DNA of 64,000 bases from Hormiphora californensis (lineage: Eukaryota > Animalia > Ctenophora): NCBI GenBank assembly GCA_020137815.1, contig CM035351.1, positions 124,001 through 188,000 on the forward strand, given 5' to 3'. Every line of letters starts with the position of its first letter. Position 1 is the first letter of the stretch. Positions 8,304-57,600 of this stretch are shown here, piece by piece. A program made the translations under genes and the position numbers. Under the pieces are notes generated by a model, which saw only the letters and a program-made list of their open reading frames with translations, did not search any database and was not told where the DNA came from.

Positions 8304-8323
8304 GGACCTTTCTTCTCCTACAG

Positions 8324-27328: not shown

Positions 27329-27386
<58 letters not shown>

Positions 27387-29440: not shown

Positions 29441-29670
29441 TATGGGGTGTGAGTCAGTTAAAGGACGACCCCTAACTGTCAAAATCAAGGGGGGAAGGGG
29501 GTGTTTTCCATCTGGGACTGTTAGGGGCATGGATGTCTGATTAGATACTGTTAGGATGACCCCCTCCCCCCCCCCCCCTCTGCGTGCGATCTATTCCGCT
29601 TTTACCCACCCTAAGTTCAATTGTATATTTATTTCAACATACTTCAATAGCATTAACAAAAGCATACTAA

Positions 29671-31080: not shown

Positions 31081-31494
31081 ATGCTAAGTTTTAAGTGCTG
31101 TTTAATGCAGTTTTTTCAACTACAGCGTTTAAATATTTATTGAGAAACTGAGACTCCAAGATGCATGGAGTGGGTGCTACTGGGGGAACTCCAAACTGGT
31201 CTCGCGTGTGTTAGCGTGGGTTCAGGCATTCAGGAAAACGACGTTGATTCAGGTGTTTAAATAGCTATAGTGGCCCCCATTCCAAGCTTTATGATGTCGC
31301 GGACGGTGACACCAGCCCGTCAAGGTTGGCACAGCAGTGAGAGTCCAAGAATAAATAAAGACCATATTGTGACGATTTCCGTGGAAGAGACTTGATACTT
31401 TTCTGAGATACAATTAAGAAATTCGGCGTGAACGGCTATGCCTGAGTGAGTACTAACAGAATGGGTAAACTCTACTAAAGTAAAACTGGTTTTC

Positions 31495-32852
<1,358 letters not shown>

Positions 32853-33288
32853 AGCTTCAAGTAAAACACACCCGAGTGGTCAGCGGTATGAAAATAACAA
32901 AAGGAAAATAAACGGAGGTTGAGACCAGGAAGGAAAAGTATTACAGTTGAGAAGCATTGACAAAAAGAAATAAGGGGATCATTGCTCTCTATACATTTCT
33001 CTCTATATTTGAGGTGGCCCATTCGAATGGGATCATGAACTATATATACACACACACATACACAGCACAATGTTCCAGTTCATACATTTTCAGTTTTAAC
33101 ATGACAAGTCCCACGTTTACTGAAACAATTGTTGTTCATGCCTATTAATATCAACATCCCTTGTTTTCAGTGCTATTTGGGGAGGCAAGCTGGATATCCA
33201 TGACAGTGGTGGAGAGGATCTGCTTTTTTCTCACCATGACAACCAGATTCTACAAGCGGAGAGTCACTCAGCTTGTAAACAATGGGTA

Positions 33289-34480: not shown

Positions 34481-34681
34481 TAAACAAAATAACTTAGAGT
34501 TGACCACCTATTTACCGTTCCCCCGAGCAGCCCGGTCTAATCGTAGTATCTTACTCTGTTAATTTATTTCTCTCCCTCTCTTCTTTCAGCTCTTGCACTT
34601 CCTGTCTCTCTCCCACCTTCAATTAAGTTCGTAAACCATATCCCCCGTTCCAGGTTAACTATTTCATCCACACCGGACATC

Positions 34682-37969: not shown

Positions 37970-39397
37970 TGTAGGACTGGGTGTGACCCCGAGAGAGTGC
38001 AGACTCGCAGTGAGAATGCCCATCTCTGTGTAGCCTGGGTAGGACTGTAAAAACCCCAGGGTGGCTAGGTTGTGTGGCCACTGCTACACTCCTACCGGAC
38101 TACCTATAGTCCGTACTCCAAAAGCTCCCGTATCCTTAGGATTTAGCATTTGTATACACATAATATGGGCCAAGGCATGCACTGCGAATGACCCAATGGA
38201 GACCACTATGCAATGTTTCCGAAAGCCAGCCCCCATTCCGTACCGTTTCCAACGCGATGGCGAGCACGGTGTTTCCCATAGAAAACACCGAGCTCTAAAA
38301 CATAACTCATGTATTTGAGGGGCGTGAATCCCTTGCCTGCACGCAAACCAATGATAAAAACATAAAGCCCATGAATACACGTATTTCAGCCTGTAAATAT
38401 AATACTCTCGCACTCTCTTCTACATCACTCTCTCACTCGCTCCTCTACATCACTCTCTCACTCTCTTATCTACATCACTCTCTCATTCTCTTATCTACAT
38501 CACTCTCTCACTCACTCACTTCTCTACATCACTCTCTCACTCACTCCTCGATCTCACTCTCTCCTGGCCCCTATACCACTGCATAACGCCTCCTTAGTTA
38601 GCCCAACAAGCCCAAGCCCGAATCACAAGCAAACTGAGTCAACCCGATCAGGTGGCGGTCTAATGACTGAGAGACCATTGCACAATGTAGCCTGTCGGGG
38701 AAGACCCTCCGACACATATGGAGACCATGTTGAGCCCGTCAGATGACCATGGCCTGATAGCCAAGCAACTCTCCGACCTGAGCAAGTCCCAAGCAGAAGT
38801 GAGGATTTCACCCCTCGCTTCCGAGTTTTGTTACGTGCGCCTGAAGGCGGGGAATCACCCCTAATCACGTGCTAACTGCCCCGTCCCCGATTGGCCAATT
38901 ACCGCGTGTGCCGTAGGGGAATAAGCAAAGGAGGGGAATTACGCATTGTCCTAACGCAGGTCACGTGACCCGAGCCTCTCGCGGAACCAACTTGCTAACA
39001 GCCGATGAGTCGCCCGAAAAAACCTAATTACGATTATGCCCGCTAAAGGATTATTGTCCGCACCTAGTTAGCAAGAAACTTATCATGTAGCCCACGGAGT
39101 GATGGCACCCCTGGTACAGCTAATGGTTTTCCCGGGAATTTCTCCCTGAAGCCCGCTTCTAATGGCCCAAGGCCCCTCTCCCCAACTCTGACTCGTCTCT
39201 CTCTCTGTCTCTCTCTTTGCACTTTATCCTCAAAATAACTCAAAAAATAGTAACTCCATTACGGCCCTCTGTATCACACTCTCTTCCCATTAATATCGTG
39301 AAATAAAATATTAATAAAAAACACACCAAATATATATAACACACTAAACATATATAAGTATGTTTGCCCGGCCTAAATGTAGGTTTACCGCCCTACA
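37970..39397 (-). repeat. 3' LTR (1428 bp)
   Basis: TGTAGG...CCTACA; direct repeat of 52215-53642, with identical ORF-track translations. Confidence 0.97.
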
Positions 39398-39412
39398 TAC
39401 CCACCCCCCCTG
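39398..39412 (-). other. Polypurine tract
   Basis: Minus strand AGGGGGGGTGGGTA immediately before the 3' LTR. Confidence 0.8.
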
Positions 39413-39465
39413 ACAAAATGGAGTTTTTATTTTTTCTCCACACTTACAGCATAAGCCCTTTGTCC

Positions 39466-41766
39466 CTATTTGTCCGTGGCTGCACTTATGGCTGGTGGCG
39501 TCTTACTCAACCGAGGATATAAGGAGGCCGTAAAAGGGATCACTGGTGCCGATGCTGGTGTGCCCGTTTTGACAGCCTGAGAGCCCCCTTTTAGCCCCGA
39601 GTCCCCTTTCCCCAATGTGAACGCTTTCCCGAATGCCCGAACCCCAGTTGTCCGAACCGGTGCCGTGTCCCCCTCCGGAAGCCCCTGCCGCTCCTCCTGG
39701 CCGGCCTCCACAGGCCCGGAAATCTGCAGCGTCCTCCATCCGCGTAGTTCCGCCTTGTATCTTCCCACCCGCGCATTCCAATGACTACATGCTATGAGGC
39801 CGAATGATATGACATTCAATGCTATCCCGATCAGGCTGACTATATCCAGCCATCCCCACTCTCCTCCTTCCTCCCGAACCATCCGAACTGCCCAGGCCAG
39901 ATCCTCTTGGGTTTGTTCCTGTTCCGTCAGCTGCTTAGCCAGTCTGGTGACATTGCCTGTGTCCAATACCCTCGAGGTTGCCTGCAGATGCTCCTCCCAA
40001 GCCTTGACGTCGGGTAGCTGTAGCTCCTGGTGCAGTGCTACCTCTCTGCTAGACGCCATCATCCTGTGATTAATCATCAAATATGAATAATCAAGCCATG
40101 AATAGAAGCCCGTCCGATTGCTTTCGATTTCCTGGAACGTAAGTCCGCCCTGGTTCCCCGCCTGGATGCCCCTAACCGGTGTTTCACTGAAGACGAGGGC
40201 TCCGGCTACTGTGAAGACTGTGCGGTCCTCACATACGGCCAATTTAGATTTACACTCTCTTCTCCCGTTGAGGCACATTGCCGGAACGTGTTCTTCTACA
40301 GCATTGCCGTGAGTTGGTCTAAGACAAATCTTTAATAATGCGTCCCTGTCGTAACACCCGTCGCCTGGTCTGACCTCATAAAATCGGTCCCCGATGCGAT
40401 ATACTTCATCGGCCATTTCAAAAAGTAGACAGGTGTGGTTAACCTTGATGCCCACTTGTGCCACCGAATACCTCGGATACACGCTGCCCGGCTGTAACAG
40501 AGGAACTGTCATCACAAAGTGGAACTTCCAGCTGAAATCATTTCTCTGCATGCCCATCAGCGTCATTTTGCCCAAAGTATAAATGGTTTCGGGCTGCCCG
40601 ATAAAAATTGAGCCCTGGAAAACCGGATTTTCCTGCACCAACCTCTCCAAGCTTGCCAATTTTAGGAGTTCCGGCAGAACCCCTATGGTTAACTCGTTGG
40701 CCAAGACCCCCGATAGTATGGTACGTGTATGTCGTTCCCATTGTCCAATCTTCCTCTCCAGTGCAGGCTGGTATGATAGCCAGCTCACATCACAAGCCAT
40801 TGCCTTTAACTCCCCTTCGAACCCCTGGAACAGTTCAATCACATCCCTGTTGAATTTTAGCTGGTGTTCAAACTGCCGTTGTGCTGTGTTCGCAAACTCT
40901 GCAAACTGTCCCCTCAGCTCGCGCAGGTGTTTCCTCATCCGTATTCCCTCCCATAATGTAGCTCCTAGCCCCACCACTGGAAGTGCCATGCCCACCGCCA
41001 ACAAGCTACGTTTCTCGTGCCCGGTGCTGCCCTGTTCCTCGCCCCCTAATTGGTACGCCTTTTTTAACGTATCAAAGTTATTCAGAGACGTCTGCCATAA
41101 GGCCTCCTGATCCGCCTCTGTCCGCTCCCTAAAACCTGCCGCCAGGTCCGGCTCATCGTAGTGCTCGCGGCATCGGTCCTCGACCACTGTCCATTTCTTG
41201 AGATTCAAAGTCTGCCATGTTGCCCACTGTCGTCCTTGTAGGTTTGCGTTGTCCAGGATATCCCTGTCTTCTTGCTTGCTTTCGCGATAATCTTTGAAGT
41301 TAACTCGACACTGTCCCTCCGATTCCCGGAATGCACAGTTTTCGCCCTTCATCCGAATGCACCATTGTATGCACTTGGTCCAATTGTCCGTTAGTTCATC
41401 GTTCTGGAGCCCGTTTAGTTTAATCAACAACGCCGTAGTGCCGAACCGCTGTCTGTCCTTCTCCTGCATCTTTTCTACCCACTCCTCATCTATCCTGCAT
41501 TTTTGCCACCAGCTGACCCTACACAAACCCACTGTTGGCCAAGTTGGAATCGGTAAGTCGATAAAAAGAGAAGCGAAGATACTGTCCCCACCGCTGCCCA
41601 GGAAACCCACGGGCTGCAAGGCGACCCCCAAGTCTGTCATAACGAGTGGCTCCGTTGAGAGCTCAAGTTGTCTGTGATCCATGCCTGCTGCGCCCACCTG
41701 CCTGCCCGCCAACCCACTCAGCACTGCCACATAAACACATACAACCGACGCTACTGATGCTGCCAT
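39466..41766 (-). CDS. env: Envelope glycoprotein, class I fusion (F-type) architecture, 766 aa
   Basis: Signal peptide; HEKR followed by hydrophobic fusion peptide SLLAVGMALPVVGLGATLW; heptad repeats; Cys-rich region; N-glycosylation sequons; TM WLDIVSLIGIALNVISFGLIA; located between pol and the 3' LTR. Confidence 0.88.
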   Translation of the reverse strand: MAASVASVVCVYVAVLSGLAGRQVGAAGMDHRQLELSTEPLVMTDLGVALQPVGFLGSGGDSIFASLFIDLPIPTWPTVGLCRVSWWQKCRIDEEWVEKMQEKDRQRFGTTALLIKLNGLQNDELTDNWTKCIQWCIRMKGENCAFRESEGQCRVNFKDYRESKQEDRDILDNANLQGRQWATWQTLNLKKWTVVEDRCREHYDEPDLAAGFRERTEADQEALWQTSLNNFDTLKKAYQLGGEEQGSTGHEKRSLLAVGMALPVVGLGATLWEGIRMRKHLRELRGQFAEFANTAQRQFEHQLKFNRDVIELFQGFEGELKAMACDVSWLSYQPALERKIGQWERHTRTILSGVLANELTIGVLPELLKLASLERLVQENPVFQGSIFIGQPETIYTLGKMTLMGMQRNDFSWKFHFVMTVPLLQPGSVYPRYSVAQVGIKVNHTCLLFEMADEVYRIGDRFYEVRPGDGCYDRDALLKICLRPTHGNAVEEHVPAMCLNGRRECKSKLAVCEDRTVFTVAGALVFSETPVRGIQAGNQGGLTFQEIESNRTGFYSWLDYSYLMINHRMMASSREVALHQELQLPDVKAWEEHLQATSRVLDTGNVTRLAKQLTEQEQTQEDLAWAVRMVREEGGEWGWLDIVSLIGIALNVISFGLIACSHWNARVGRYKAELRGWRTLQISGPVEAGQEERQGLPEGDTAPVRTTGVRAFGKAFTLGKGDSGLKGGSQAVKTGTPASAPVIPFTASLYPRLSKTPPAISAATDK

Positions 41767-42805
41767 AAAACGTACTTTTTCTGCTAAAACGAGGCGTGGT
41801 TAGAATTATTTCAATAATCTTCGGCTCTGGCACACATTTTGGATTATATTACTCTCACATATTTTGTCAAAAACTTATCTCTCCGATATGCGCTTCTAAG
41901 TTTTTATAGACGGGATGGGCACATACCGTCGTCTCACCCCCCCCTTGAAAAGACGCCTTTGCAGAAAAATGACGTTTCTGTAACCGCTCCCAATACGCAT
42001 TTTCGTTTAACCTTTCCCATACCTCCATAACCACACCCCAGGTGCCTGCGCCACCTTGTTTACGTCTCCCCCTGATTATATTTCCACCGTCCGTTTCTAT
42101 GAACATTCCTCCCATTTATCTACAGTACAATATCAATATTTGTATAATTTTAGGCACCTATGCATATTTACGGCTCCCCCGCCGTCCCCCGGTCGACCGC
42201 CGTGCCCCCGTTTAAGGTCTACATCCATCAGCTTTGAATTCATCTCCCACCGTCCGTAATTTAATATGAATGAGGTCGGGCGCTACTCCGATCCCCCTCT
42301 AATGCGTTTTCTGGCCGTCCCAACCCTGGCCTATCCCAATAATTCCCACCACATGCTTAGCTACCAACCGACCAATCCAGCCAACTAGCCAGCATGCCCC
42401 AATTTTCGCGCACGGCATTATTGATGTGTCGGGATTTGACACACCCCCACCGATAGGTTGGTCATACCCACGTTTTACCTTTTCCTGGTACCCCGTTTTA
42501 ATAACCAACCTATAGGGGTGGATAACTAACCTACAATAGTTCAGCACGTTTTGTCCGCGATGCGCTGATTACATCCATGGACAAAACTCTAAAGAGGATT
42601 AGAAACCCGATCGCATATATGCTAGTTTCCCAAATTTCTTGGGAGAGGTGATAAACCTTCTGTGTGCCAGGACCCAAAATAGCACTACAGTCGAAAACGC
42701 ATTAACAAAGCTGATATAGGTGAAAACAGGAATATGCATATATGTATGATATGTATAATTGTACAAGTTGAGATAAAATTCCACACACGAATGATAAATA
42801 CACAT

Positions 42806-45800
42806 TCAATTGACCGAGTACTGATATCTCACGGGTTTTTTAATAACACGTTTAGAGCGTCTTAATAAACCATCCCTATGAATCCCCACCTGTCCCGGTC
42901 CCAAGTCTGATCCGTCATCTGTTTTCATGTCGGCCCTCCAAGACTTGCTATCCTGTTCCCGTCGTTTGCTTGATTTTTTAATCTTCTCCCCCTTGTTTTG
43001 TCTTCCCATCACCCACACGGGTCTGTTCGACTCGTGTTGTCTACCTGTAAGTCTCCAACCTGGTTCTTGCCAGGATCGGCCAATTATTGGCTTAGTGACT
43101 TCCCCCCGGTCATGTAAGCCTTCCCTATACCCCGTGTTTCTCAGTGTCAGTGGTGGTTCGTCATGTGGTGTCGTTAGATGTTCGCTGGTTGATGTTCCCA
43201 GTGGTGCGGTTCCCCCTTCGCCTATAGTGACCTTCCTTCCGAGTGGTTCCTTTGTGTCTTCTCCCTCAGAGCTATCCTCCTCCTCTGACGAGCTGTCACT
43301 AAAAGGTTCATCCTCTGTAGGATGTCCTGCTCTGTCAGTATGGAGGAGTGAGCTCCCCGGGTTAGAGTCCTTAGTTTTACGCAAATTTACACCAGGCTTC
43401 ACCTTACGTAGTGCATCAAAATGAACTACCTCGTGTTTGCCCGTCTCTGCATCTTCCACGATGTAATTTTGTTCATTTATACATTTTGTGATTACCAAGG
43501 GACCTTTATACGTGTTTCTGAACTTTCGGTAATCCCTTATTTTTGCCGGCAAGGGCTTATACAACAGAACGTGGTCACCCACGCTATACGTAGTAAAGTT
43601 TACATTTTTATCGTAAGCCCGTTTTTGTAATTTCATTGCATGCCCCGTAGTGGCACGCACCAAATCAAAGACCTCCCTGAATTTATAATAGACCGCTGAT
43701 TTATACTGCTCTTTGTTTTCATAGAACTGAGACTGAGTGGTATCGAAGATAGCATCAGCCGCAGTTCTCACCGTGTAAGAAAACATTAGATCGTTGGCCG
43801 AATACTTAGTTGTGGAGCTTACCGCGTTGTTAAGAGCAAAGACAGCTACCGGTAATTTCTCCACCCATGTATCGGGTTTTTCCCCTACCAATTTTTTAAG
43901 AACCGCCACAACGTCTCTATGACGTCTTTCCACCTGCCCGTTGCCCTGTGGGTGATACGCCGTTGTACGCACCTTATTAATTTGTAAAACTTTATAAATT
44001 TCCTGTATGACCTTAGAGCTGTGCAAATTTGACGCTTGATCCGACAGCACGGTTTCCGGTACTCCAAAAATGAAGCACCATTTTTCCATGAATGCTCTAG
44101 CTATATTTTTGCTGGTGGCCTCTACCAAAGGACTCGCCATGAAGTATTTGGTGAATCGATCAATCATAGTAAGAATGTATTTAGGAATGCCCGGGGCCGG
44201 TGTAAACGGCCCTACTATGTCAATAGCTACACATGCGTTTGGTCTACCGACCTGAAACTGTTTAAGCGGTGCTCTCGGTTTTTTGAAGTATGCTTGGTTA
44301 TTCAGAAAGCACGCTTTACAGCACTGGCAATAATGCTCTATTTCTTTGTGCATGTTTGGCCAGTAGTAAGATTTGAGTACGTTATCTGTCGTACTCTTGC
44401 TGCCCATGTGCCCTGCGGTTGCGTTACTATGATAAGCCTTCAAGATCTCGTCGCGTTGCTCTTCCGGGACACAGATCAAGAGCCCAAATTTCTTAGATTT
44501 TGGCGTGTAACGTTTGTAACAGATCACATCGTTCTGGTTAATTATCAAGGATTCAAATTTGTTCCAATATTTTCGCAACTTAATGGTGAACGCCTTAGCC
44601 CATCTTCTGAGAGGTTTTTCTCCTTCTACCAGCCATTTCCGGACTTCCGTCAGCACGGTGTCCCCTAATTGTGATGCCCTCCATTTACCTGCCCTATCTG
44701 ATACCGAAGCCGTGGGATTATCCCAGGACCCAATGGGGTCCTTTTTTTTAATTTTTACCGCGGCGACGGCCGTCTCTTTTAAATCGGTGGCCTGAGAATT
44801 ACTGATATACCAGTCGTATAGCACGGACGAATGGGTGGGAGCCCGTACGTCTCTACTTAATAGGTCAGGGAGTTGCATCTGAACTCCGCTTTTGTGGACC
44901 AGTTCAAAATCATAGTCCGCCAGGGCTATTATCCACCTCAACATAACTGCCGAGGTAGTTTTTCTCAAGAATTTGTCCCCGGTGATCGCCTCCATGTCGA
45001 TCACAGCCTTAAATTCGGCGTTGATGAGGTAAAAGCGCCACTTCTCTATGAAGTATTTCAGGGCCAGGAACTCCCTTTTGAAACTTGGGTACTTTGACTC
45101 TGTTTCTGAAAGCACCTTGCTCCCATAGGCTATAGGCCTAAATTTCCCGTCTATTTCATGCCCTATGACGCCCCCTAAAGCAACCATACTTGCATCCGTG
45201 TACAGCACCATTTTCTTGGTGACGTCCGGAAAGATCATCACCTGCGGGCTACAGAGAGCCTCCTTCAGTTTCTCTACACTGGCCCTAGCTTCCTCCGTCA
45301 TTACGAAGTCTGGCCCTTTCAATGTGTCTGTAAGCCCTTTGGCCAGCAGTGCAAATTTCGGAATATGGGTCCTAAACCAAGAACAGGCCCCTAAAAACCG
45401 TTGCACTTGCTTCCGCGAAGCCGGCATTGCGATGTTCCTAACTGCTTCCGTTTTTTCCCCATCAGTCTCGACGCCGTTGACTGATAGGAACATGCCCAAA
45501 AATTTTATTTTCCTCTGAAAAAGTTGGCACTTCTTTGGATTCAGAGTCATACCCGCTTGGGTCACCCGGGTAAAAACCTCGTCTAAAATGGCACACATTT
45601 CCGTGAAAGTGGAGGCGCTCGCTATTATATCGTCGATGAAGCCAGCCGCCTTGTCCCCTTTCATGCCCTGCAAAATTTTGTCTAACAAGGCCTGATATGT
45701 ACTGGGCGAGCCTTTTAATCCCAAAGGCATCCTAACGAATTCGAAATGCCCGATGCCCGGAATGGTGAACGCCGTTCTATCCCTATGCTCAGGTGCCATT

Positions 45801-47071
45801 CCAATTTGAAAATAACTATCCTTGAAATCCAATGTGCTAAAAAGTTCTTTACCGGCCCAGTTGGCCGTTATCGAGTCTACTGCAGGCACGGCTGCATATG
45901 ACCTTTTAGAATGTTTGTTTAATTCTCGGTAATCGATTAGTAAGCGCCTTTTGCCCCCTCTCTTCATGAGAATTGCTGGGGACGAGAACTCACTAGAGCT
46001 CCGTTGTATAATGCCCGCATCCAAAAGTTCAGCCACTTCCTCTTCACAATCTTTGAAAAGATGGAAAGGCACCCTCCGATATTTGCAACGAATTACGGTA
46101 TCCCGTTCTGCCAGTGGGACGGTGTGCTGTATTAACGTCGTTAGTCCCAGCTGGTCCCTACCGAGGGCGAATACGCCCTCATGTTTACTCACTAGCTGTG
46201 TGGCCAAAAGTTTTTCATCTTCTGATAAGTTTGTGTTCTCGTTGAATTTCAAAGCCTCTAGAATTCCGTCTAGATTGGATTTGTCACCGTCTATCTGGAC
46301 GGTTTGTATTCTGTTTAAAGTTTCAATAACTTCTAAAGCTGTGCCCAGACAGACCTGCGGGGATATCTCCCAGTCTCCCCCTTCCCATTCATTGCGAAAC
46401 GGGAGACTGCAATACCCATTCTTTACTTCCATAGCCCATGAACAATTTGTGTCGCCTCCTATGTCTTCACTAGGGAACAGGGAGAAAACTCCCGTTATGT
46501 TTTCCCTTTCGTTAGCCTCGTTTTGCAAACGAGCCTCAGCCCAAATCATGCCTTCTGCTGGCACACAAATGGACTTTATTAGATGTACGTTTAGCGCCCT
46601 TTTGCCTTTTTTCTTACTCCCCGCTAGAAGAGGAGCCTTAAAATCAGGTCCAGTGACCAAATTTAAGTCAAAGTTTATTGTTGCCCTGGCTTCTCCCAGC
46701 CATTCGGTACCCAGGATCACGTGATCCCTTAGTTCCTTGACTACCAGGAAGTTTGTTACGAAGGGTTTGTCCCCTATTTTAAAAGGAACTTTATTTGCTC
46801 TATACAAAACGGGAAGGGAGATTCCCGAAATCCCCGTTATTAAGACGTGCTCAGCCGCCTTATCCGCTACCTTCTGTCTAAGGAACCACTCCTCACTACA
46901 TAAATTCCTAGCCGCACCACTGTCAACCAGCCCGTGAACTGTCCCATCCCTACCCATGATCCTAACGAACACTTGCCCCCCACATGAATTTATTTCGAGA
47001 AGAGAAACGTCCTTACACTCAGACCACTCCGACTGTCCGATTAACACCTCTCTTCTCTCTATTCGTTTTTT
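42806..47071 (-). CDS. pol: Pol polyprotein (protease-RT-RNase H-integrase), Ty3/Gypsy order, expressed by -1 frameshift from gag
   Basis: LVDSGA protease; LDFKDSYFQ and FIDDII RT; YTDAS RNase H; H-H-C-C and D,D,E integrase (IDIVGP, SDQ, GQVER); KGP motif. Confidence 0.97.
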   Translation of the reverse strand, partial: KKRIERREVLIGQSEWSECKDVSLLEINSCGGQVFVRIMGRDGTVHGLVDSGAARNLCSEEWFLRQKVADKAAEHVLITGISGISLPVLYRANKVPFKIGDKPFVTNFLVVKELRDHVILGTEWLGEARATINFDLNLVTGPDFKAPLLAGSKKKGKRALNVHLIKSICVPAEGMIWAEARLQNEANERENITGVFSLFPSEDIGGDTNCSWAMEVKNGYCSLPFRNEWEGGDWEISPQVCLGTALEVIETLNRIQTVQIDGDKSNLDGILEALKFNENTNLSEDEKLLATQLVSKHEGVFALGRDQLGLTTLIQHTVPLAERDTVIRCKYRRVPFHLFKDCEEEVAELLDAGIIQRSSSEFSSPAILMKRGGKRRLLIDYRELNKHSKRSYAAVPAVDSITANWAGKELFSTLDFKDSYFQIGMAPEHRDRTAFTIPGIGHFEFVRMPLGLKGSPSTYQALLDKILQGMKGDKAAGFIDDIIASASTFTEMCAILDEVFTRVTQAGMTLNPKKCQLFQRKIKFLGMFLSVNGVETDGEKTEAVRNIAMPASRKQVQRFLGACSWFRTHIPKFALLAKGLTDTLKGPDFVMTEEARASVEKLKEALCSPQVMIFPDVTKKMVLYTDASMVALGGVIGHEIDGKFRPIAYGSKVLSETESKYPSFKREFLALKYFIEKWRFYLINAEFKAVIDMEAITGDKFLRKTTSAVMLRWIIALADYDFELVHKSGVQMQLPDLLSRDVRAPTHSSVLYDWYISNSQATDLKETAVAAVKIKKKDPIGSWDNPTASVSDRAGKWRASQLGDTVLTEVRKWLVEGEKPLRRWAKAFTIKLRKYWNKFESLIINQNDVICYKRYTPKSKKFGLLICVPEEQRDEILKAYHSNATAGHMGSKSTTDNVLKSYYWPNMHKEIEHYCQCCKACFLNNQAYFKKPRAPLKQFQVGRPNACVAIDIVGPFTPAPGIPKYILTMIDRFTKYFMASPLVEATSKNIARAFMEKWCFIFGVPETVLSDQASNLHSSKVIQEIYKVLQINKVRTTAYHPQGNGQVERRHRDVVAVLKKLVGEKPDTWVEKLPVAVFALNNAVSSTTKYSANDLMFSYTVRTAADAIFDTTQSQFYENKEQYKSAVYYKFREVFDLVRATTGHAMKLQKRAYDKNVNFTTYSVGDHVLLYKPLPAKIRDYRKFRNTYKGPLVITKCINEQNYIVEDAETGKHEVVHFDALRKVKPGVNLRKTKDSNPGSSLLHTDRAGHPTEDEPFSDSSSEEEDSSEGEDTKEPLGRKVTIGEGGTAPLGTSTSEHLTTPHDEPPLTLRNTGYREGLHDRGEVTKPIIGRSWQEPGWRLTGRQHESNRPVWVMGRQNKGEKIKKSSKRREQDSKSWRADMKTDDGSDLGPGQVGIHRDGLLRRSKRVIKKPVRYQYSVN

Positions 47072-48426
47072 GATTCCCCTGCTTTATTAGCGGTAGGTGT
47101 CGAGCCTTCTTGGAAGGAGACTGCTCGAGGTCTCACATGCCACGGGTTGGGTTGAGCTTCCGCGACCCCACCTTGCTGCTGTCCCTGTCCCATCCAATGG
47201 TTATGCCGTCCTCGTCCCTGCCCGTTTCCGTTGAATCTGCCTCCCCGTGAAGGACTGTAGCCCTGTTGCCGATTGGGGTTGTATGAGCTGAACTGTGGGT
47301 TTGGGCCACCCGTGCCGCACTGCATGCACCTGTTGCGCCGGGCGAAATTATGAAACCCACATTCCTCGCAGAGCCAGTCCCCCACCTGTAGTTTGGCCTC
47401 GAACCTCCGCCCGTTGTACCCTCTGTTCTGTCCGCCCCACTGCCGAGCCTGCCCCTCCCATGGCCGGTGCTGCCTCTCCCCAGTTTGGCGAGGCCCCTCA
47501 TACTGTGCCTGTAGTGGAGCTCCTCCCTGGTTTGCCCGTGCCTCCCCTTGCCCTGCCGCCAGTACCGTGACCTCATTAAGCCCAGACACGTCGTTCCGTG
47601 CCGTTAAAGCCTTCTCCTTCCGGTCCATGTTTTCCACCAGGTCCGCGAAGGAGTCCCTCTCCAGCTTTTCCGCTATCTCACACGCGATCTTGTCGTCCCT
47701 GGCCCCGATCCATAGCGTGTCCTTCAGGAGCTGCTCCAACTCCGGGCCCTCCACGTCCCCCAGATCCGCTGCCTCCCTAAGTAGCCGATCCCCAAAGTCC
47801 CTAACCGTCTCCTCCAACTGCTGCTTCAGGGCCCGGAACCGTGAAATGGCCACCACTTTCAAATCGGGTGGGGCCAGCACTAAAACTACCCGCTCCAGGT
47901 AGGCCTCCCACGATTTGGCCTCGGACGCCTTCTTGTCCCCCCGTACTTTCAACGAGGACACTTCGTCCAAGTACGTCGGAAATATCTCACGTGCATCCTC
48001 TGTGGATATCTTGGCTGCCCTCCTATAGCCCTCCCATGCGTCCACGAATGCCCGCACGCTTTTGCCCTTCTTGAACGGCTCCGGCTTCCTCGCCAATTGA
48101 TGCCTCTTGGCCCTCCCCGTGCCCCACTCCGTCCCAATACCTCCCCTGGCCCCGACTGCCTCTGTTTTGATCCACTCCTCCTTCTCCTCCCGTAAGCCCT
48201 GTATCATCCTCTTGGCCCCCTCCAAGTCCCGTGCGTACCTTTCCTCATTCTCAGCTATCGCCTTGCCCGCCTGCTTCCTAACCTCCTCCACCTTCTCCAT
48301 GCCCTCCCCCATTCCCCTTGCCCGCGCCCTTTCCTGCTCCCGGAGCACCAGTTGACACAGCTCCTCGCCCTGGCCCTCGTTTAAGTTCAGTCCTTGAACG
48401 AATTCGTTGATAGAGATGCCCTCCAT
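47059..48426 (-). CDS. gag: Gag (coiled coil, capsid-like region, Gly/Arg/Gln-rich NC with RanBP2-type zinc finger)
   Basis: Directly upstream of pol; capsid-like PEPFK..., QQLEETVRDFGDRL major-homology-like motif; likely ATG at 48426. Confidence 0.9.
   Translation of the reverse strand: MEGISINEFVQGLNLNEGQGEELCQLVLREQERARARGMGEGMEKVEEVRKQAGKAIAENEERYARDLEGAKRMIQGLREEKEEWIKTEAVGARGGIGTEWGTGRAKRHQLARKPEPFKKGKSVRAFVDAWEGYRRAAKISTEDAREIFPTYLDEVSSLKVRGDKKASEAKSWEAYLERVVLVLAPPDLKVVAISRFRALKQQLEETVRDFGDRLLREAADLGDVEGPELEQLLKDTLWIGARDDKIACEIAEKLERDSFADLVENMDRKEKALTARNDVSGLNEVTVLAAGQGEARANQGGAPLQAQYEGPRQTGERQHRPWEGQARQWGGQNRGYNGRRFEAKLQVGDWLCEECGFHNFARRNRCMQCGTGGPNPQFSSYNPNRQQGYSPSRGGRFNGNGQGRGRHNHWMGQGQQQGGVAEAQPNPWHVRPRAVSFQEGSTPTANKAGESKNE
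47065..47071 (-). promoter_or_regulatory. -1 ribosomal frameshift slippery heptamer A AAA AAC
   Basis: gag ends ...TCA AAA AAC GAA TAG; the -1 frame is open into pol (RIERREVLIGQ). Confidence 0.85.
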
Positions 48427-48770
48427 GTTGTGTTCACTACAAGGAATAAGAGAAGAGGTTAGCAAACATAATAAACATATATATCTGAGGAGTGGGGTTG
48501 TAAAAGGGAAGAGGGAATCTGTTCTTTCAGGTGGGGGTTCAAGGGAAAAAGGGAGGGGAAATGTAACACTGAAAACACACGATTTTCCTCACTGAAAGTT
48601 AAAACTGATACGTTATAGATACATAAAAAGAAATACATAGAAAGTCCTGGACTCCAATGTTCCGGCCCGCTGATCCGTCAAACTCTGGTCCGGCCCACTG
48701 ATCCGGCTCGTGCTTCCCTTGATGAGTTCCAGTCCACTCCTGAATCGGCCGGCCTCACCTCCATCCCCTT

Positions 48771-49415
48771 CTACTCGGTTCCAAGGCCGCATATGGAGGC
48801 GATATGACCGTACGTTAAACACCGGGAACACTCGATCATTTGTTGAATGCGAGGCGGCTTTACGTTGTAGCGACCGAACGCCTCGTGATCCCGGCTGATG
48901 GTTTCCCGGCTGTCGGCCATTTCACGACGGTGCATACAGCGCACCCATGTGGCGTTTGTTGCCATCCTCCGGCCCTCCCTCCGCATCCTGGCATCCCTCT
49001 CCTCCCGCCTCCTCCGTGCCTCCACCGCCCTCCTCTCCCGTTCCTCCGCCTGAATCCTCTCCCGTGCCGCCGCCCTTGCCCTCATCAACCCCGCCACCTT
49101 GCCCCTCCTCGCCTCCTCCTCCAGCCTCAACGCCGCCAACTCCGCCCCTAACCGCCGATCCTCCGCCATCCAATCCTCCATCCGCCCCTCCTCCTGCCTG
49201 CCCGTCCCCGGCCCCTCCGACACCTGCCCAACCTCCTTCGCCTCCTCCGCCGGCACGCCCACTGCCTCCACCTCCACGCCTTCGTCCACCCCCTCCAGCT
49301 CATCTGCCCAGCTACCAATGTCCTCCTGCCACGTCTTCGTCACCACCACCGCCGCCGTCGCCGCCGCCTTCGCATCCGACACCTCCTCCGCCCGTTGGAT
49401 TTTGCTCGTGTTCAT
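48771..49415 (-). CDS. Accessory ORF-B, 214 aa: acidic N-terminus, Arg/Glu coiled coil, C-terminal CCHC zinc knuckle
   Basis: ATG preceded by a splice acceptor; CSRCLTYGHIASIC fits C-x2-C-x4-H-x4-C. Confidence 0.75.
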   Translation of the reverse strand: MNTSKIQRAEEVSDAKAAATAAVVVTKTWQEDIGSWADELEGVDEGVEVEAVGVPAEEAKEVGQVSEGPGTGRQEEGRMEDWMAEDRRLGAELAALRLEEEARRGKVAGLMRARAAARERIQAEERERRAVEARRRREERDARMRREGRRMATNATWVRCMHRREMADSRETISRDHEAFGRYNVKPPRIQQMIECSRCLTYGHIASICGLGTE

Positions 49416-49555
49416 AATGGTACTATAGAGGGAGAGAGAGAGAATATTAGATCAGCTGAAAGGTTACACGACACGCTAGGGGAAAGAATACATACAAAAA
49501 AAAGGGGGGGGGGGAAAGGGAGTGAGATAAAAACGCTGAGAGAGTATACACAAAT

Positions 49556-49557
<2 letters not shown>

Positions 49558-49592
<35 letters not shown>
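49558..49592 (-). other. Internal poly(A) tract (~35 nt) on the element's sense strand
   Basis: T run on the + strand ~70 nt downstream of the ORF-A stop. Confidence 0.9.
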
Positions 49593-49593
<1 letters not shown>

Positions 49594-49663
49594 ATAAAAG
49601 ATACAAGAGAATAAAAGGAACGATAACAAATATCCCTCAAATACAGCCATTATTTCCTCCCTC

Positions 49664-50242
49664 CTATTCCGGCACGTCCACCCTGGATATTAGGGCCGCC
49701 CGTTTGTACCCAAACCTTATGGCCCACCGTGTCAGCTTTAACAAAGCCCCCTGCCCAAAGTCCACTGCGGCTATGAGTTCTGTGGCCCCCAATTCCCCTC
49801 TCACCCAGTAATGATTGGCCGCCGCCACCCGATGCCTCTTGGAGTCCACCCCACCCCGTGCCCGGCCCATTATCTCCTCCCAGCCCCACGGGTCGCTATA
49901 CCCCTCTATCTCCATAATGGCCTGGCCCACCCTAACATCTATCCAGGCCCCCTTCAAGTCCTCCCAACAAAAATAACATAACCGGGCCCCCATAATGGCC
50001 TCTACCTCCGAATCCCAGATCTCCCTGCACCCCCTACGTGCACACTCTTCCGGCCCTGCCCTAGGTAAGTCCGGCTCCCCCAACGGATACCTCCGGCCCC
50101 CCACCAAGTCGATGACCGGCAGCTCCCCATCCTCCTCCGGCAACACCTCCGACCTCTGCACCTCCCGCGCCTCCACCCGCGCCTCCAGCCGTTCCTGTGC
50201 CCGCACTACTGATATCCGTCGCCGTTTACTGTCTTGTGACAT
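49664..50242 (-). CDS. Accessory ORF-A, 192 aa, unknown function
   Basis: ATG-initiated, same strand as gag/pol, preceded by a splice acceptor; N-terminal KRRR; C-x4-C and C-x2-C pairs. Confidence 0.65.
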   Translation of the reverse strand: MSQDSKRRRISVVRAQERLEARVEAREVQRSEVLPEEDGELPVIDLVGGRRYPLGEPDLPRAGPEECARRGCREIWDSEVEAIMGARLCYFCWEDLKGAWIDVRVGQAIMEIEGYSDPWGWEEIMGRARGGVDSKRHRVAAANHYWVRGELGATELIAAVDFGQGALLKLTRWAIRFGYKRAALISRVDVPE

Positions 50243-52195
50243 AGTGTTGCGCTATATGGGACAGTCGGAGGGTTTAGTGGAATGTCCCACAATTTTTTTA
50301 TAAAACCCGGTGTGAACCCGTGAACCCCATGAAGTACCCGTCTTTACCCATCACAATATAACTAAACTCAATGTAGTGGTGTAACTAAACAGTATGAAGA
50401 TGGTGCAGTGATAAACTGTTTTCCACTATGTTTTTCCAAATCCGGTTTACCTACGCAAAGCCAATCATAACTAAAACAAATGCTTGATAATAGTACGAGG
50501 ACCTCTAACTATAATTTCCAAACTTGTTCGAGCTCGCGCCGTCCCCCTCCCGGAAGTTGTTGCACGCTACTCACCTTTGTAACCCACTACAGCACCATGG
50601 TTGATTTGCTGTCCAGAGTGGGCTACCGCAGCGCCTTTACACAACTGTTCACTGAAACCGCGGTCCAAAGTTTCTTCTCGACAGTATTTCATAACACATA
50701 ATATTAATAATGAACGAATCAATTGATGCCATTGCTACCTCTCTCTGGGCTCCATCTCGGTCGCTGCGCAACCTTGATTTCGCCCGAGTGAGGTAACACA
50801 GTGTGAGCAGACCCATGTGCCATTAAACGCGCATCTTAACCTCGGCCCATACCTCAACCCGCACCCCAGCCCTTAACCTCCGACCCTACCTCCGTCACCC
50901 GCCCTTACCAACGTGCAATTTGGCACAGCAAACTCTAGACTCCGACCTTACGGTCCAAATGTCGAGTTCGCTGAGAGAGAGATTAGCGCTCATGAGTCCG
51001 CACACTATGTAAATAGCACCAAAAACTTCGATAAAACAGAGAGAATATTTAAATACATAGCCCGTTGCCTTCCCATAATAATAACAACCCGCCACATTCC
51101 TTATATAACATCATTCTCCCCCCACACAATTGCTAAATCATTATACATTGCAAGCAATATAAGCCAAATTGTGGCTGCACACCTTACCCTAAACAGTCTG
51201 TCTTTTCCTTTCTAATACGTGCCTAACATAAACCAAATTTCAGTCTTTTACTGTACTACTAAGGAATTTTTAGGGGTGAGTGAATGGGTGTCTTACCATG
51301 CAGCATGACTTCATGGCTGCCTCTGAACCAAGTGGGAAACCTTTGCCCTAGAGTTTTGTGGGGAGGTCTAAACATGTAAAATAAAATGCAAGTAACGAAT
51401 TCAACGGTGAGGGTATTTCTAGTCACTCCCGCAGATGGGGCACCAACATAAGGCAACTGCTGTTTCAAGCTCCTAGACTGCGTAGTTTTGATATTGTTAT
51501 CATGTAAAAATCTCACGTCCCGTCCCCCTGAGTGTATCTCCACCCCCTGAATCCTGATTAACCCATACTCACATACCCCACATATAAAAAGTCAAGTAGT
51601 AACAGAACAGGCCGCCAAGAGAGAAATTATTTCATGATGATGTGAGAACGATGCAAGGATAATGGGGAAACGAAATGAGAATGTCATTATCACTGGGTGG
51701 TGGAAGTATAATTGGAGAAGTGAGAACGAGGTGATAACGATATCAGGATGGTGCTATCACTGTGTGCGTGCACTGAACTGTGAGAACGAGGTGATAATGA
51801 TGTACTACCATTTATCAGGAAGATGTGTAAGTAATGTGAATAGGGTATGAGAGAGATGTGAAAATTTAACAGGGATGTGATGATGATATCAGGAAAATTT
51901 AAGGGGCTTGGCTGCCGTTCTGCTGTTACCCAGACTTGAGAACCTGATACTACAAGCATAAAAAATCATTCCCTGCCCGTAATCATATAAATCAAACTAC
52001 CTAAATGACCAATTAACAAACGCGGGCAGACCTGCAGAGGTAGTAAACGAAAAGCTGATTTTATAGATTGTTCTACTCATAATCTCCACTCAACTCCTGT
52101 GCGCTCTCTCCGAATGAATAATTGGCTCCTCACCAATAACCGGCCCAACTATGCAAGCCCCGTGTATACAAACATGAACTCAGATTCATTAATCT

Positions 52196-52211
52196 GGTTG
52201 TCGTCGGACCA
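52196..52211 (-). other. Primer binding site (tRNA not identified)
   Basis: Minus strand TGGTCCGACGACAACC starts 3 nt after the 5' LTR. Confidence 0.7.
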
Positions 52212-52214
52212 TAA

Positions 52215-53642
52215 TGTAGGACTGGGTGTGACCCCGAGAGAGTGCAGACTCGCAGTGAGAATGCCCATCTCTGTGTAGCCTGGGTAGGACTGTAAAAACC
52301 CCAGGGTGGCTAGGTTGTGTGGCCACTGCTACACTCCTACCGGACTACCTATAGTCCGTACTCCAAAAGCTCCCGTATCCTTAGGATTTAGCATTTGTAT
52401 ACACATAATATGGGCCAAGGCATGCACTGCGAATGACCCAATGGAGACCACTATGCAATGTTTCCGAAAGCCAGCCCCCATTCCGTACCGTTTCCAACGC
52501 GATGGCGAGCACGGTGTTTCCCATAGAAAACACCGAGCTCTAAAACATAACTCATGTATTTGAGGGGCGTGAATCCCTTGCCTGCACGCAAACCAATGAT
52601 AAAAACATAAAGCCCATGAATACACGTATTTCAGCCTGTAAATATAATACTCTCGCACTCTCTTCTACATCACTCTCTCACTCGCTCCTCTACATCACTC
52701 TCTCACTCTCTTATCTACATCACTCTCTCATTCTCTTATCTACATCACTCTCTCACTCACTCACTTCTCTACATCACTCTCTCACTCACTCCTCGATCTC
52801 ACTCTCTCCTGGCCCCTATACCACTGCATAACGCCTCCTTAGTTAGCCCAACAAGCCCAAGCCCGAATCACAAGCAAACTGAGTCAACCCGATCAGGTGG
52901 CGGTCTAATGACTGAGAGACCATTGCACAATGTAGCCTGTCGGGGAAGACCCTCCGACACATATGGAGACCATGTTGAGCCCGTCAGATGACCATGGCCT
53001 GATAGCCAAGCAACTCTCCGACCTGAGCAAGTCCCAAGCAGAAGTGAGGATTTCACCCCTCGCTTCCGAGTTTTGTTACGTGCGCCTGAAGGCGGGGAAT
53101 CACCCCTAATCACGTGCTAACTGCCCCGTCCCCGATTGGCCAATTACCGCGTGTGCCGTAGGGGAATAAGCAAAGGAGGGGAATTACGCATTGTCCTAAC
53201 GCAGGTCACGTGACCCGAGCCTCTCGCGGAACCAACTTGCTAACAGCCGATGAGTCGCCCGAAAAAACCTAATTACGATTATGCCCGCTAAAGGATTATT
53301 GTCCGCACCTAGTTAGCAAGAAACTTATCATGTAGCCCACGGAGTGATGGCACCCCTGGTACAGCTAATGGTTTTCCCGGGAATTTCTCCCTGAAGCCCG
53401 CTTCTAATGGCCCAAGGCCCCTCTCCCCAACTCTGACTCGTCTCTCTCTCTGTCTCTCTCTTTGCACTTTATCCTCAAAATAACTCAAAAAATAGTAACT
53501 CCATTACGGCCCTCTGTATCACACTCTCTTCCCATTAATATCGTGAAATAAAATATTAATAAAAAACACACCAAATATATATAACACACTAAACATATAT
53601 AAGTATGTTTGCCCGGCCTAAATGTAGGTTTACCGCCCTACA
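52215..53642 (-). repeat. 5' LTR (1428 bp)
   Basis: Direct repeat of 37970-39397. Confidence 0.97.
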
Positions 53643-54613
53643 ATAATAGTTATCTCTCTCTACTCTACTCTCTCTCAATATCTGCCTCGGTCTCTCTAAA
53701 GCTAAAAGAACTGGGAGAGAGAGAAACATCTTTCAATTCTTCGTAGTGCCCTTTTATTTGGGATGCTGAATGTGAACTAAACTATAGGTGGGGGACAGTA
53801 CCAATCACCAAACTTTTCTTTTTGCCCATTACCTCTAAGCTCACTTGCCAGTGTGAGGTGTCTTCGATACCAACTATACTTTTCTCTGTCTAACCTTTTC
53901 TTTCTAACTGTCCAGTTGGAGTTTCGGAGCCTGATATCAGCCTGCAGGCATGCGTTCTAGCTGGGAGGATGTAAAAGTTCCATCTCGAAGGCATGCCTGG
54001 TTCAGACTTTTTTAGGAATCGCAACCCTATGGGCTTCATTAGGGGAGCTGATGAGCTGGCTGTGTTGAGCTACTGGCTTGTTTTACGGTTATGTGTTTTG
54101 TTTTCAGTTTTTTTGCAAAAAAAAGAATATTGTAACACCTTCATTTATTAGCGATGTGTGTCAATATGATACGTCTCCTTCTCTTCACAGCTACATTGTG
54201 TGGAACAGCCGTTCTCACCGCTGGTTAGTCAAAAAATTTTTAGCAATTGGCTGTTGCAATTGGGACATTTGGCTGTGTCGCGCCCCTCGATATGGGAACC
54301 TGTATGGCGGCGCCGACCCGATCTGAGGCCCTAAGGAAATTTTTGAGGGTCTGTCGACACAGTAGATAGATGGGAATTGCGTTCAAAGATTAATCATGAA
54401 GTTGCTATATTTCGTTCATTGTCCAAAATGACGTTATATAAGCTCTGGGCTCGGCTGCTTTTTAGGGGGGACGGGTCTAGGGTCGGCTGTCAGGCCAATG
54501 CTCTGACCACAGTTCTCGCGCGCGTGCAGAACAGAGAGAGAAACGAGAATGGGTCAGGCCAATGCTCTGACAGAGGGTCGGAGCCACTGAATTTATCTAA
54601 TATTGCGTTTCAG

Positions 54614-57600
54614 ACTGGACAGCTGTTATAGAGAGGGAGGTGAAGTTATTCTGGGACCTGGAGGGAACACCTCTCCAGATAAAGACGGACTCTTCAGTTG
54701 GCAGTAACAAAAAGATCTATGTTGAGCTGTATAGTAATAGTGGCAGTTTCCAAAGTGATGTAGTCGTGAAGTTTAGTTCTACAGTGGAGTATAGGATCTA
54801 CGATTGCACCAGCGACTGGCCAGATCTGCCAGTCCAGCCCTCAGGGGTGGAGGACAAGGTCTGGACGATCAGTAAAACTGAGAGCCATCTAACTATCGAG
54901 TGTAATGGTTTAACTCTCCTGAACTACAAGTTTTCAGACGGGAAAAGTAGCTGCGCTTCACTAATGAGCGTTGTGCAGAAAATAGCCTTTCACGATGAGG
55001 ACACAGCATCTGACTTCTACAGAGCAGGTATATCCACTAGATATGTGAATGGCGCAACCTATAGGGGGGGTTCCAGCCTATTTTTTTGTATTTTTTTGTA
55101 TTTATTTGTACGGACCATACATAAAAGTATCAAAAATTCCTGTTTTTTCCATCATACTATTATTAAAGCAAATAGGGAAATCCCATGTCCCGTTTTTTTA
55201 ACCAAATATGGCACAAAATTCCTGGAAATGGCCTTTTGCACGTGTTGTCCCTAGAGGGACCCTGGCAACCTGCCAGCTTGAGCCTTAAACTGCACGTGCA
55301 TCCTTGATTCATCTTTCTGCCGGTTGTGTGATTGATCGTTTGCTCGATTTGATCTGTTCACCACGTTTCGTGAACATGACTACTGAACTTCAACACAATC
55401 GCCAGCGAGTTTGGAGGAGCCATATCTCCCAAACTGGCGCTGACGCCTATAGACTACGTGATAGAATCCTACAAAAGAGGTGATTATTATTCAAAAAAAG
55501 TTGTCAACACACGTAATAACAAAGTATCAATGGCATTAATAAGAAATGATAGTAATACGTGAAAGTATTTTGCCAATGTACTCCTCTCCTTCATAAAATA
55601 CTTCAGGACCTGGCAAAAGAGGACCCGTGGTTTTTTGTTGAAAGAATCCCTGTGGTTAATTTACCTGATAAATTTACTGATTTTAAAAATTTCAAATGAT
55701 ACTACACTATTTGCTTAGTTTACTGTATGACCATCCCTGATATTCGCCCGTAGGGCGAGCGGGCTTACTAGTACAAACAATACAAAAAATACAAAAAAAT
55801 AATGAAGGATGTGGTCGGTAAGAAATTGCGATTCGGGAAAATTTCTCGCTTAGAAAATACGATTCGAGAAAATTTTCTCGGTAAGAAATTGCGATTCGGG
55901 AAAATTTCTCGCTTAGAAAATACGATTCGAGAAAATTTTCTCGTTAAGAAATTGCGATTTGGAGAAATTTCTCGCTTAGAAAATACGATTCGAGAAAATT
56001 TTCTCGGTAAGAAATTGCGATTCGGGGAAATTTCTCGCTTAGAAAATACGATTCGGGGAAATTTTCTCGGTAAGAAATTGCGATTCGGGGAAATTTCTCG
56101 CTTAGAAAATACGATTCGAGAAAATTTTCTCGGTAAGAAATTGCGATTCGGGAAAATTTCTCGCTTAGAAAATACGATTCCAGAAAATTTTCTCGGTAAG
56201 AAATTGCGATTCGGGAAAATTTCTCGCTTAGAAAATACGATTCGAGAAAATTTTCTCTGTAAGAAATTGCGATTTGGAGAAATTTCTCGCTTAGAAAATA
56301 CGATTCGAGAAAATTTTCTCGGTAAGAAATTGCGATTCGGGGAAATTTCTCGCTTAGAAAATACGATTCGGGGAAATTTTCTCGGTAAGAAATTGCGATT
56401 CGGGGAAATTTCTCGCTTAGAAAATACGATTCGAGAAAATTTTCTCGGTAAGAAATTGCGATTCGGGGAAATTTCTCGCTTAGAAAATACGATTCGAGAA
56501 AATTTTCTTGGTAAGAAATTGCGATTCGGGGAAATTTCTCGCTTAGAAAATACGATTCGAGAAAATTTTCTCGGTAAGAAATTGGGATTCGGGGAAATTT
56601 CTCGCTTAGAAAATACGATTCGAGAAAATTTTCTCGGTAAGAAATTGCGATTCGGGGAAATTTCTCGCTTAGAAAATACGATTCGGGAAAATTTTCTCGG
56701 TAAGAAATTGCGATTCGGGGAAATTTCTCGCTTAGAAAATACGATTCGAGAAAATTTTCTCGGTAAGAAATTGCGATTCGGGGATATTTCTCTCGCGATT
56801 TTGGCATGCTATATATGTAGCCGTGTGCGGCAAAAAAAAGGCCCCCCCTAGACCACCATAGTTGCCGATGTGGTGGAGAGCTGTAACTTGGCAGGGTTGC
56901 TCCACTATGTCTATCTTGATCCTGACAGAAAAATCAGAGCTCTAGCTCAAAATTCATTTTTTTGATAGGAATGAACATTGTCATTCATTCCAAGAAAAAA
57001 ATATTTTCGGTCCAGAATTCAAGCAATTATCTTTGGCCATCGATTAGCTTTCCAATGTGACCAAGATCATCTAAATTGGGCAACCACAAGAGACACAGTG
57101 TCATGTTTCTTAAAGTTAGTCAGGTCATGTGATCTTCACCGAATCGTTGATTATCCGGGATTGCTAATCGAGCCAATGGGCAGAGGAATCTCGTATCACG
57201 GCCGCTAATGAGGTATGTGTACCAATACAGGGTAATGTGATTCGAGGAAAGAGGACATTTATCAAAGAGCTACAGATCTCATGACCAATCAGCATCGTCA
57301 TCCCTCATTAGTAGCCGTGATACGTGATTCTCTACCACTTAGACCGATTCGTAATACTGAACACTCAACGATTCGGTGAAGATCACATGACCTGATTAAA
57401 TTTAAGAAAGATGACACTGTGTCTCTTGTGGTTGCCCAATTTAGATGATCTTGGTCACATTGGAAAGCTAATCGATGGCCAAAGATAATTGCTTGAATTC
57501 TGGACCGAAAATATTTTTTTCTTGGAATGAATGACAATGTTCATTCCTATCAAAAAAATGAATTTTGAGCTAGAGCTCTGATTTTTCTGTCAGGATCAAG

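Follow-up and report, generated by a model that had tools for sequence, protein, structure and literature searches.

Acceptor-like splice signals ahead of the separately started open reading frames, gag included, of an intact gypsy element in the ctenophore Hormiphora californensis

Within a 64-kb window of the genome of the ctenophore Hormiphora californensis (the whole stretch of 64,000 nucleotides that was analysed; assembly GCA_020137815.1, contig CM035351.1, positions 124,001 to 188,000, coordinates below being counted from the first letter of the window) lies a complete Ty3/gypsy long terminal repeat (LTR) element of 15.7 kb, on the minus strand from 53642 to 37970, which carries an env-like gene and has intact open reading frames (ORFs). 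Its internal order is a 2-kb leader, two ORFs here called ORF-A and ORF-B, gag, pol and the env-like ORF. A sequence resembling a splice acceptor is found shortly before ORF-A, ORF-B, gag and env, and the first AUG downstream of each of the four acceptor AGs is the start codon of its ORF. Judged from the letters of the element, these four sites are real and well-placed splice signals, and each ORF, gag included, is likely to be read from processed RNA. The reading that we favour, and to which we give an even chance, is that one LTR-driven transcript is cis-spliced from a shared leader donor to each acceptor, so that each gene would stand on its own subgenomic mRNA.

Results

Acceptor-like sites before the start codons

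The initial annotation of this DNA had placed acceptor motifs on the minus strand ahead of ORF-A, ORF-B and gag at 50252, 49423 and 48437, and all three are located there; the env site that it put near 41781 is present as well, with a branch motif (CTAAC) and, at 41784, another AG that had been missed. The distance of 7-14 nt between acceptor and ATG given for all sites therefore stands for ORF-A, ORF-B, gag and the nearer env AG (9, 7, 10 and 14 nt) and has to be widened for the second env AG, at 17 nt. A YAG preceded by a CTRAY branch motif with no intervening AG occurs at nine of the 1214 minus-strand AGs in the element, and a YAG with at least 70% pyrimidine at 18; the two criteria are joined at three AGs only, the sites ahead of ORF-B, gag and env. 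When 1082 AGs were scored with a weight matrix, the gag site ranked 1, ORF-B 2, env 7 (its tandem partner 15) and ORF-A 14, so that the claim of an acceptor belonging to gag itself holds with the best score in the element. By comparison, the AG ahead of the first in-frame ATG of pol ranks 520 of 1082, and a separate pol acceptor was rejected on that rank. The ORF-A site is the weakest of the four: it is where it had been reported, but its ACTAAAC is not a CTRAY branch and the tract is 65% pyrimidine, yet the site closes an 88-nt AG-free zone.

Dinucleotide shuffles of the whole spacer matched the observed ATG-adjacent score in 0 (gag), 3 (ORF-B), 5 (env) and 50 (ORF-A) of 2000 trials; shuffling only the last 150 nt gave 1, 4, 1 and 69, and only the last 80 nt 1, 1, 5 and 24, in the same order, all of these counts being optimistic since the matrix weights are our own, taken from a general consensus and set after the sites had been seen. 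The motifs might be by-products of pyrimidine-rich spacers, in which case internal entry, shunting or reinitiation would give access to the ORFs on unspliced RNA. The weak ORF-A site (50-69 of 2000 shuffles), the strong-scoring AGs inside pol and the post hoc matrix would fit such an account, as would the gag of foamy virus, which is read by shunting past short ORFs (PMC5035957). We hold it to be very improbable: composition-preserving shuffles rebuild the ORF-B, gag and env sites rarely (0-5 of 2000 each), the pol ATG has no comparable acceptor, and 3.8 kb with 68 AUGs separate gag from the LTR.

Two outside yardsticks are available. Scans for related DNA gave 3 viral loci (27-30%) and, in a second viral scan, none, as well as 61 metagenome loci (21-37%) and 8 genome loci (22-32%), and these 72 distant gypsy-type loci served as a background set only: among their ATG-started ORFs of at least 150 aa, 2 of 104 score at least 6, as do none of the 11 CCHC-bearing ORFs, versus four of four here. 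In a mannosidase-like host gene of the window, exons joined in frame have acceptors scoring 7.2, 6.0 and 3.9 and donors scoring 4.6, 3.8 and 1.7, around introns of 270 and 83 nt; these host splice signals are weaker than those of the element.

Leader, donors and upstream AUGs

From the LTR to ORF-A there are 1968 nt with 39 AUGs, and from the LTR to gag 3784 nt with 68 AUGs, so that scanning from cap to start codon could hardly reach either ORF; because 68 AUGs precede gag on the unspliced RNA, gag would need an acceptor of its own. The candidate donor AG|GTGAGT reported at 50574 is present and is the best match among the 912 GT sites of the element, 323 nt 5' of the ORF-A acceptor and upstream of all four acceptors. 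The arrangement resembles that of complex retroviruses, with an acceptor ahead of each separately started ORF and a strong donor upstream of all of them, the donor statistics being marginal: donor 50574 was equalled in 49 of 1000 shuffles of the whole leader and in 19 of 1000 of its last 500 nt, the second-best donor, at 48758, in 54 of 1000, and the six leader donors scoring at least 3.5 compare with a mean of 2.4 expected (20 of 500 shuffles). No good donor was found in the spacers between ORF-A and ORF-B (A-B) and between pol and env, where 810 and 716 of 1000 shuffles do equally well. Further upstream, neighbouring donors lie at 50908-50852, and this donor cluster, together with an acceptor of rank 4 that has a branch motif, flanks the candidate exon 50970-50909, which contains no AUG. 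A 39-codon leader ORF (ATG at 50692; 50575-50692, minus strand) runs through donor 50574; whichever of the tandem acceptors is used, it would be in frame with env, to which it would add 44-45 residues ahead of the signal-like segment.

Cis-splicing from a shared leader and its alternatives

Under the favoured reading, donor 50574, or one of its neighbours at 50908-50852, would be joined to one of the four acceptors. The AUG-rich 5' leader would also have to be removed, by upstream cis-splicing via short exons, by addition of the host spliced leader (SL) at an acceptor within the leader (50971, for example), as in the nematode element Cer1, or through an internal start site. Pol would be made by -1 frameshift on the gag mRNA, unspliced RNA would be a poor Gag template and mainly genome, and ORF-B, speculatively, might export that unspliced genome in the manner of Rev or CERV.

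Several points weigh against this reading. The use of the splice sites is a prediction from DNA. One sequencing run, perhaps of RNA, gave no contig on 39400-52600 and just two 34-nt pieces on 28400-32500, which speaks neither for nor against expression. No ORF start adjoins the AGs of ranks 3 and 5, which fall within the protease region of pol (46800 and 46470, minus strand), and the acceptor score thus also picks AGs without apparent use. The distant-locus control is rough, with many broken ORFs and internal ATGs and unrelated hosts, and at 21-37% identity those loci are too distant for acceptor conservation to be judged; the host exon chain was joined only through its third exon, which leaves three acceptors for calibration. 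The donor statistics amount to p of about 0.02-0.05 with several regions tried. Splicing from 50574 alone keeps at least 36 upstream AUGs, so that an extra, unseen step is needed, and the join to env, over 8.8 kb, would have to skip three acceptors, of which two score higher.

The initial annotation had offered cis-spliced subgenomic RNAs and an SL-resolved operon side by side. Processing of each ORF, which both share, is well supported in sequence by the ranks, the pol control and the 39-68 upstream AUGs. In the operon form, trans-splicing would add the host SL directly at all four acceptors, or failing that at those of ORF-B, gag and env, with 3' ends formed in the spacers; translated RNAs would then lose the R and U5 regions and the primer-binding site (R-U5-PBS) and could not be reverse-transcribed. 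Such direct trans-splicing would clear all upstream AUGs in one step; the AG-to-ATG gaps are uniformly 7-17 nt though 43-88 AUG-free nt are on offer; the spacers past ORF-A and pol are U-rich, with three TGTA each in 150 nt; and in the A-B spacer there is an A run of 35 nt and no good donor. Against it stand two donors, a near-perfect one that precedes all acceptors and another 322 nt ahead of the gag acceptor; in nematodes, an upstream donor turns trans- into cis-splicing. The operon account fails where it calls for acceptors free of donors, since donors are present at 50574 and 48758, although the A-B and pol-env spacers themselves have none. The A-B and B-gag spacers also contain no AATAAA or ATTAAA; ATTAAA is found near the pol end at 42844, 42502 and 42265. 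The SL trans-splicing of ctenophores, which the annotation had named as known, is published for both Hormiphora, where at least 56% of Iso-Seq long reads carry the SL, and Mnemiopsis (PMC8527503), and this abundance favours the operon form, as does Cer1, in which SL1 is found on the spliced mRNA and not on the 8-kb RNA (PMC3315495). For the Tor elements of an SL-using tunicate, in contrast, cis-splicing or internal promoters are reported, and the string 'trans-splic' occurs 0 times in the text compared (PMC4402516). Taken together, we regard the operon form as possible and distinctly less probable than an even chance. Its fullest version is slightly less probable again: a retroviral genome built as a host operon would take SL at each acceptor, all translated RNAs, that of gag-pol among them, would lose R-U5-PBS, ORF-B would export the genome, and a RanBP2-type finger of Gag would package RNA by a donor-like sequence kept only in unprocessed molecules.

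It is unlikely, finally, that the ORFs are separate units, some driven by internal promoters (compare Penv in Tor3b/4b) and each with a short 5' intron or outron, ORF-A being perhaps a captured mRNA, the A run its poly(A) and the acceptor partly a relic. ORF-A and gag are each preceded by a local pair of donor and acceptor (323 and 322 nt apart), which would suit this account, as would the 1-kb pol-env spacer and the A run 70 nt past the ORF-A stop; internal env promoters have been shown in Tor (PMC4402516), and ORF capture has been described in rotifer LTR elements (PMC5408684). The A-B and pol-env spacers, however, are without a good donor, and the third-position G bias common to ORF-A, ORF-B and gag argues against recent capture.

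Cis-splicing from the shared leader has modestly more sequence support than trans-splicing, and the two routes can coexist, to judge by Cer1. A leader-end motif, AATTTGAG, was not found on the coding strand of the element, which accordingly bears no trace of a captured spliced leader.

Structure and relatives of the element

The features are collected in Table 1. The element is young and intact, a gypsy element of five ORFs. It has direct LTRs with TG...CA ends, a TTAT target-site duplication, a primer-binding site (PBS) and a polypurine tract (PPT), a pol in the order protease, reverse transcriptase (RT), RNase H and integrase, and a gag with a capsid-like fold, and is thus Ty3/gypsy; as an env-carrying gypsy it is also an errantivirus in the wide sense. 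No tRNA gene was found in the 64-kb window. AATAAA and ATTAAA are absent from the LTR (52215-53642), the closest AATAAA being that at 39431 just ahead of the PPT, and a TATA-like site at 52646 with AATACA at 52560 would yield a short R region.

Table 1. Features of the element, in window coordinates
Feature	Coordinates	Strand	Description
5' LTR	52215..53642	-	1428 nt, TG...CA ends, identical to 3' LTR; TTAT target-site duplication outside at 53643-53646
PBS-like stretch	52194..52211	-	begins TGG, 3 nt past 5' LTR
Leader	50253..52193	-	~2 kb; 39 AUGs, six donor-like sites, acceptor-like sites including 52032, 51368 and 50971
Candidate short leader exons	51367-51297; 50970-50909	-	the second AUG-free
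Leader hairpin	~50800-50690	-	stable; z -5.1, picked from a 167-window scan
Best donor match	50569..50577	-	AAAG|GTGAGT, GT at 50574; best of 912 GT sites
ORF-A acceptor	50252..50280	-	G at 50252, 9 nt 5' of ATG 50242
ORF-A	49664..50242	-	192 aa, basic N-terminus, four cysteines
A run	49558..49592	-	35 nt; A-B spacer, 70 nt past ORF-A stop, U/UGUA-rich flanks
ORF-B acceptor	49423..49452	-	CTAAT branch motif, pyrimidine tract, TAG; 7 nt 5' of ATG 49415
ORF-B	48771..49415	-	214 aa; Leu-rich export-signal pattern 89-98, Arg-rich 134-150, CCHC knuckle 196-209
Second-best donor match	48753..48761	-	GT at 48758, 13 nt past ORF-B stop; 322-nt intron with gag acceptor
gag acceptor	48437..48465	-	CTAAC branch motif, pyrimidine tract, TAG; 10 nt 5' of ATG 48426
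gag	47059..48426	-	455 aa; capsid-like fold, one RanBP2-type zinc finger, no CCHC knuckle
Predicted -1 frameshift signal	46997..47071	-	AAAAAAC 47071-47065, hairpin 7 nt downstream; z -4.9
pol frame	42806..47064	-	protease, RT, RNase H, integrase; open back to slippery site
env acceptor	41781..41805	-	CTAAC branch motif; tandem TAG/CAG 41784/41781, 17/14 nt 5' of ATG 41766
env-like ORF	39466..41766	-	766 aa; hydrophobic N-terminal segment, KR + hydrophobic segment 254-272, C-terminal hydrophobic segment 642-660, 4 N-glycosylation motifs
AATAAA and PPT	39398..39431	-	AATAAA at 39431; ahead of 3' LTR
3' LTR	37970..39397	-	1428 nt, then TTAT at 37969-37966

The named top matches of the RT-RNase H region are from Mnemiopsis leidyi (52% and 47%; overall best 65% and 63%), a quick tree of 46 rows places the element within a 22-row group that includes both Mnemiopsis proteins (Shimodaira-Hasegawa-like approximate likelihood ratio test, 100), and Mnemiopsis is also the source of one gag relative. 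Among the scanned loci, contig L065 (331-~8900), which is filed in a bacterial genome bin and is probably eukaryotic contamination, contains a gypsy element that has long ORFs besides gag and pol.

ORF-A and ORF-B look like real, long-resident genes and are candidate new accessory proteins. The frequency of G at third positions is 0.55 in ORF-A, 0.63 in ORF-B and 0.48 in gag, and this common bias suggests long residence rather than recent capture. None of 90 candidates proved to be a relative of ORF-A, its best Atlas score was 0.77, and its single-sequence structure model has a predicted local distance difference test score (pLDDT) of 43. As to the A run behind it, template switching may have copied in a poly(A) tail, or the run may serve as an A-rich signal for 3'-end formation. 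For ORF-B the best Atlas score was 0.75, and neither a Pfam match nor similarity to a related gag was found, short of a full homology search. Its all-leucine export pattern arose in none of 2000 shuffles, 10 arginines fall within 17 residues, and a CCHC knuckle is present; on these features it is, speculatively, a candidate for a Rev- or CERV-like factor that exports the unspliced genome. The lone CCHC knuckle of the element sits in ORF-B, not in Gag.

When the gag model was compared with known structures, the top rows were the capsids of PNMA2, dArc1 and murine leukaemia virus (weak by E value, the best being 0.007 and none at 0.001), and all listed rows were capsid or capsid-like domains. 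A word search found none of 7997 candidates related; the HMMER listing was dominated by RanBP2-finger proteins, and eight capsid-region matches were chosen among the 150 listed. In seven of these eight aligned relatives gag starts at a like position, the remaining one being ~14 residues longer. The RanBP2-type finger occupies gag residues 348-372 (47310-47380, minus strand; Pfam E value 6e-8), at a place where six of the eight relatives have two CCHC knuckles and the other two end before the region. RanBP2 fingers bind GGU or donor-like RNA. Their presence in Gag has been reported for a frog endogenous retrovirus (bioRxiv 10.1101/2024.07.05.601823). Pol is likely to be a -1 frameshift product of the gag mRNA that needs no start of its own: none of 200 shuffles folds as well as the hairpin behind the slippery site, and several related gags end in K-N as well. 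The hydrophobic segments of the env-like ORF fit an F-type fusogen, but the site reads HEKR and not R-x-K/R-R; neither Pfam nor the PDB gave a sequence match. In the pol-env spacer a hairpin is predicted at 42450-42555 (minus strand, z -2.8), and Rfam gave one chance-level match.

Neighbouring features of the window

The mannosidase-like host gene has its exons at ~8850-19200 on the plus strand (Pfam Alpha-mann_mid, E value 2e-10) and is interrupted by a 52-nt tandem array. A single-exon host ORF of 469 aa, membrane-protein-like, lies at 29671-31080 (plus strand); an acceptor-like TAG (score 4.2) precedes its ATG by 20 nt, and a donor-like site is found ~210 nt upstream. Satellite arrays with units of 43, 63 and 26 nt occupy 1-8304, 55815-56792 and 62649-63997, the 63-nt array giving spurious long ORFs. 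A repeat of 300-600 nt, composed of an 11-nt unit, recurs many times at 19400-36800 and is found there in both orientations.

Discussion

In LTR elements and retroviruses, genome and gag-pol message are normally the same RNA. With gag 3.8 kb and 68 AUGs past the LTR and behind the strongest acceptor, the element described here would, if the reading is right, uncouple these two roles and show that a gypsy lineage in an early-branching animal expresses its genes in the manner of complex retroviruses; should the SL do the processing, this LTR element would have the organisation of a host operon. Lentiviruses have one major upstream donor, several acceptors and accessory ORFs, and read Gag from genomic RNA. 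Complex retroviruses likewise translate Gag from genomic RNA, and the present element would differ from them in this respect, besides being Ty3/gypsy by RT and domain order. In foamy virus, pol has its own spliced mRNA; a spliced gag RNA was not confirmed there in the passages compared (PMC5035957).

A literature search, made mostly without subscription journals, found no gypsy element in which all ORFs, that of gag among them, have an acceptor in front, nor an SL-resolved operon beyond the single SL1 site of Cer1. The nearest known systems are the 'ancient errantiviruses' of ctenophores, for which Chary and Hayashi describe nine env-carrying elements, six with F-type env (PMC13524379), and which share the order LTR-gag-pol-env and intact ORFs with ours. 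In the passages compared, that paper has no element with two ORFs, or with an acceptor, before gag; the terms 'splic', 'subgenomic', 'RanBP', 'accessory' and 'upstream of GAG' occur 0 times in its main text, and its LTR search left out pairs more than 14 kb apart, the present pair being 14.2 kb apart (PMC13524379).

Cer1 of C. elegans is likewise a gypsy element in an SL-using host, with an acceptor before an initiator ATG and a spliced, SL1-bearing mRNA (PMC3315495, PMC10309623), and its accessory protein CERV exports genomic RNA (PMC10309623). Its GAG-POL is made from the unspliced 8-kb RNA, whereas gag has the strongest acceptor here; CERV shares sequence with GAG and lies partly past pol in an element without env, whereas the extra ORFs here are free-standing and upstream. 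The Tor elements of Oikopleura dioica are env-carrying LTR elements in an SL-using host, as here, with env expressed from a cis-spliced RNA in Tor3a and from an internal promoter in Tor3b/4b; their gag and pol products in rapid amplification of cDNA ends begin in the LTR, and the passages compared contain no extra upstream ORFs (PMC4402516). Among plant elements, Retrosat2 has an ORF0 upstream of gag, as here (PMC3485330), and EVADE and BARE1 make spliced Gag-only RNAs, so that their translated and packaged pools differ (PMC12786077). The splices of EVADE and BARE1 cut past the gag start and drop pol, whereas the splice predicted here would land before the gag ATG.

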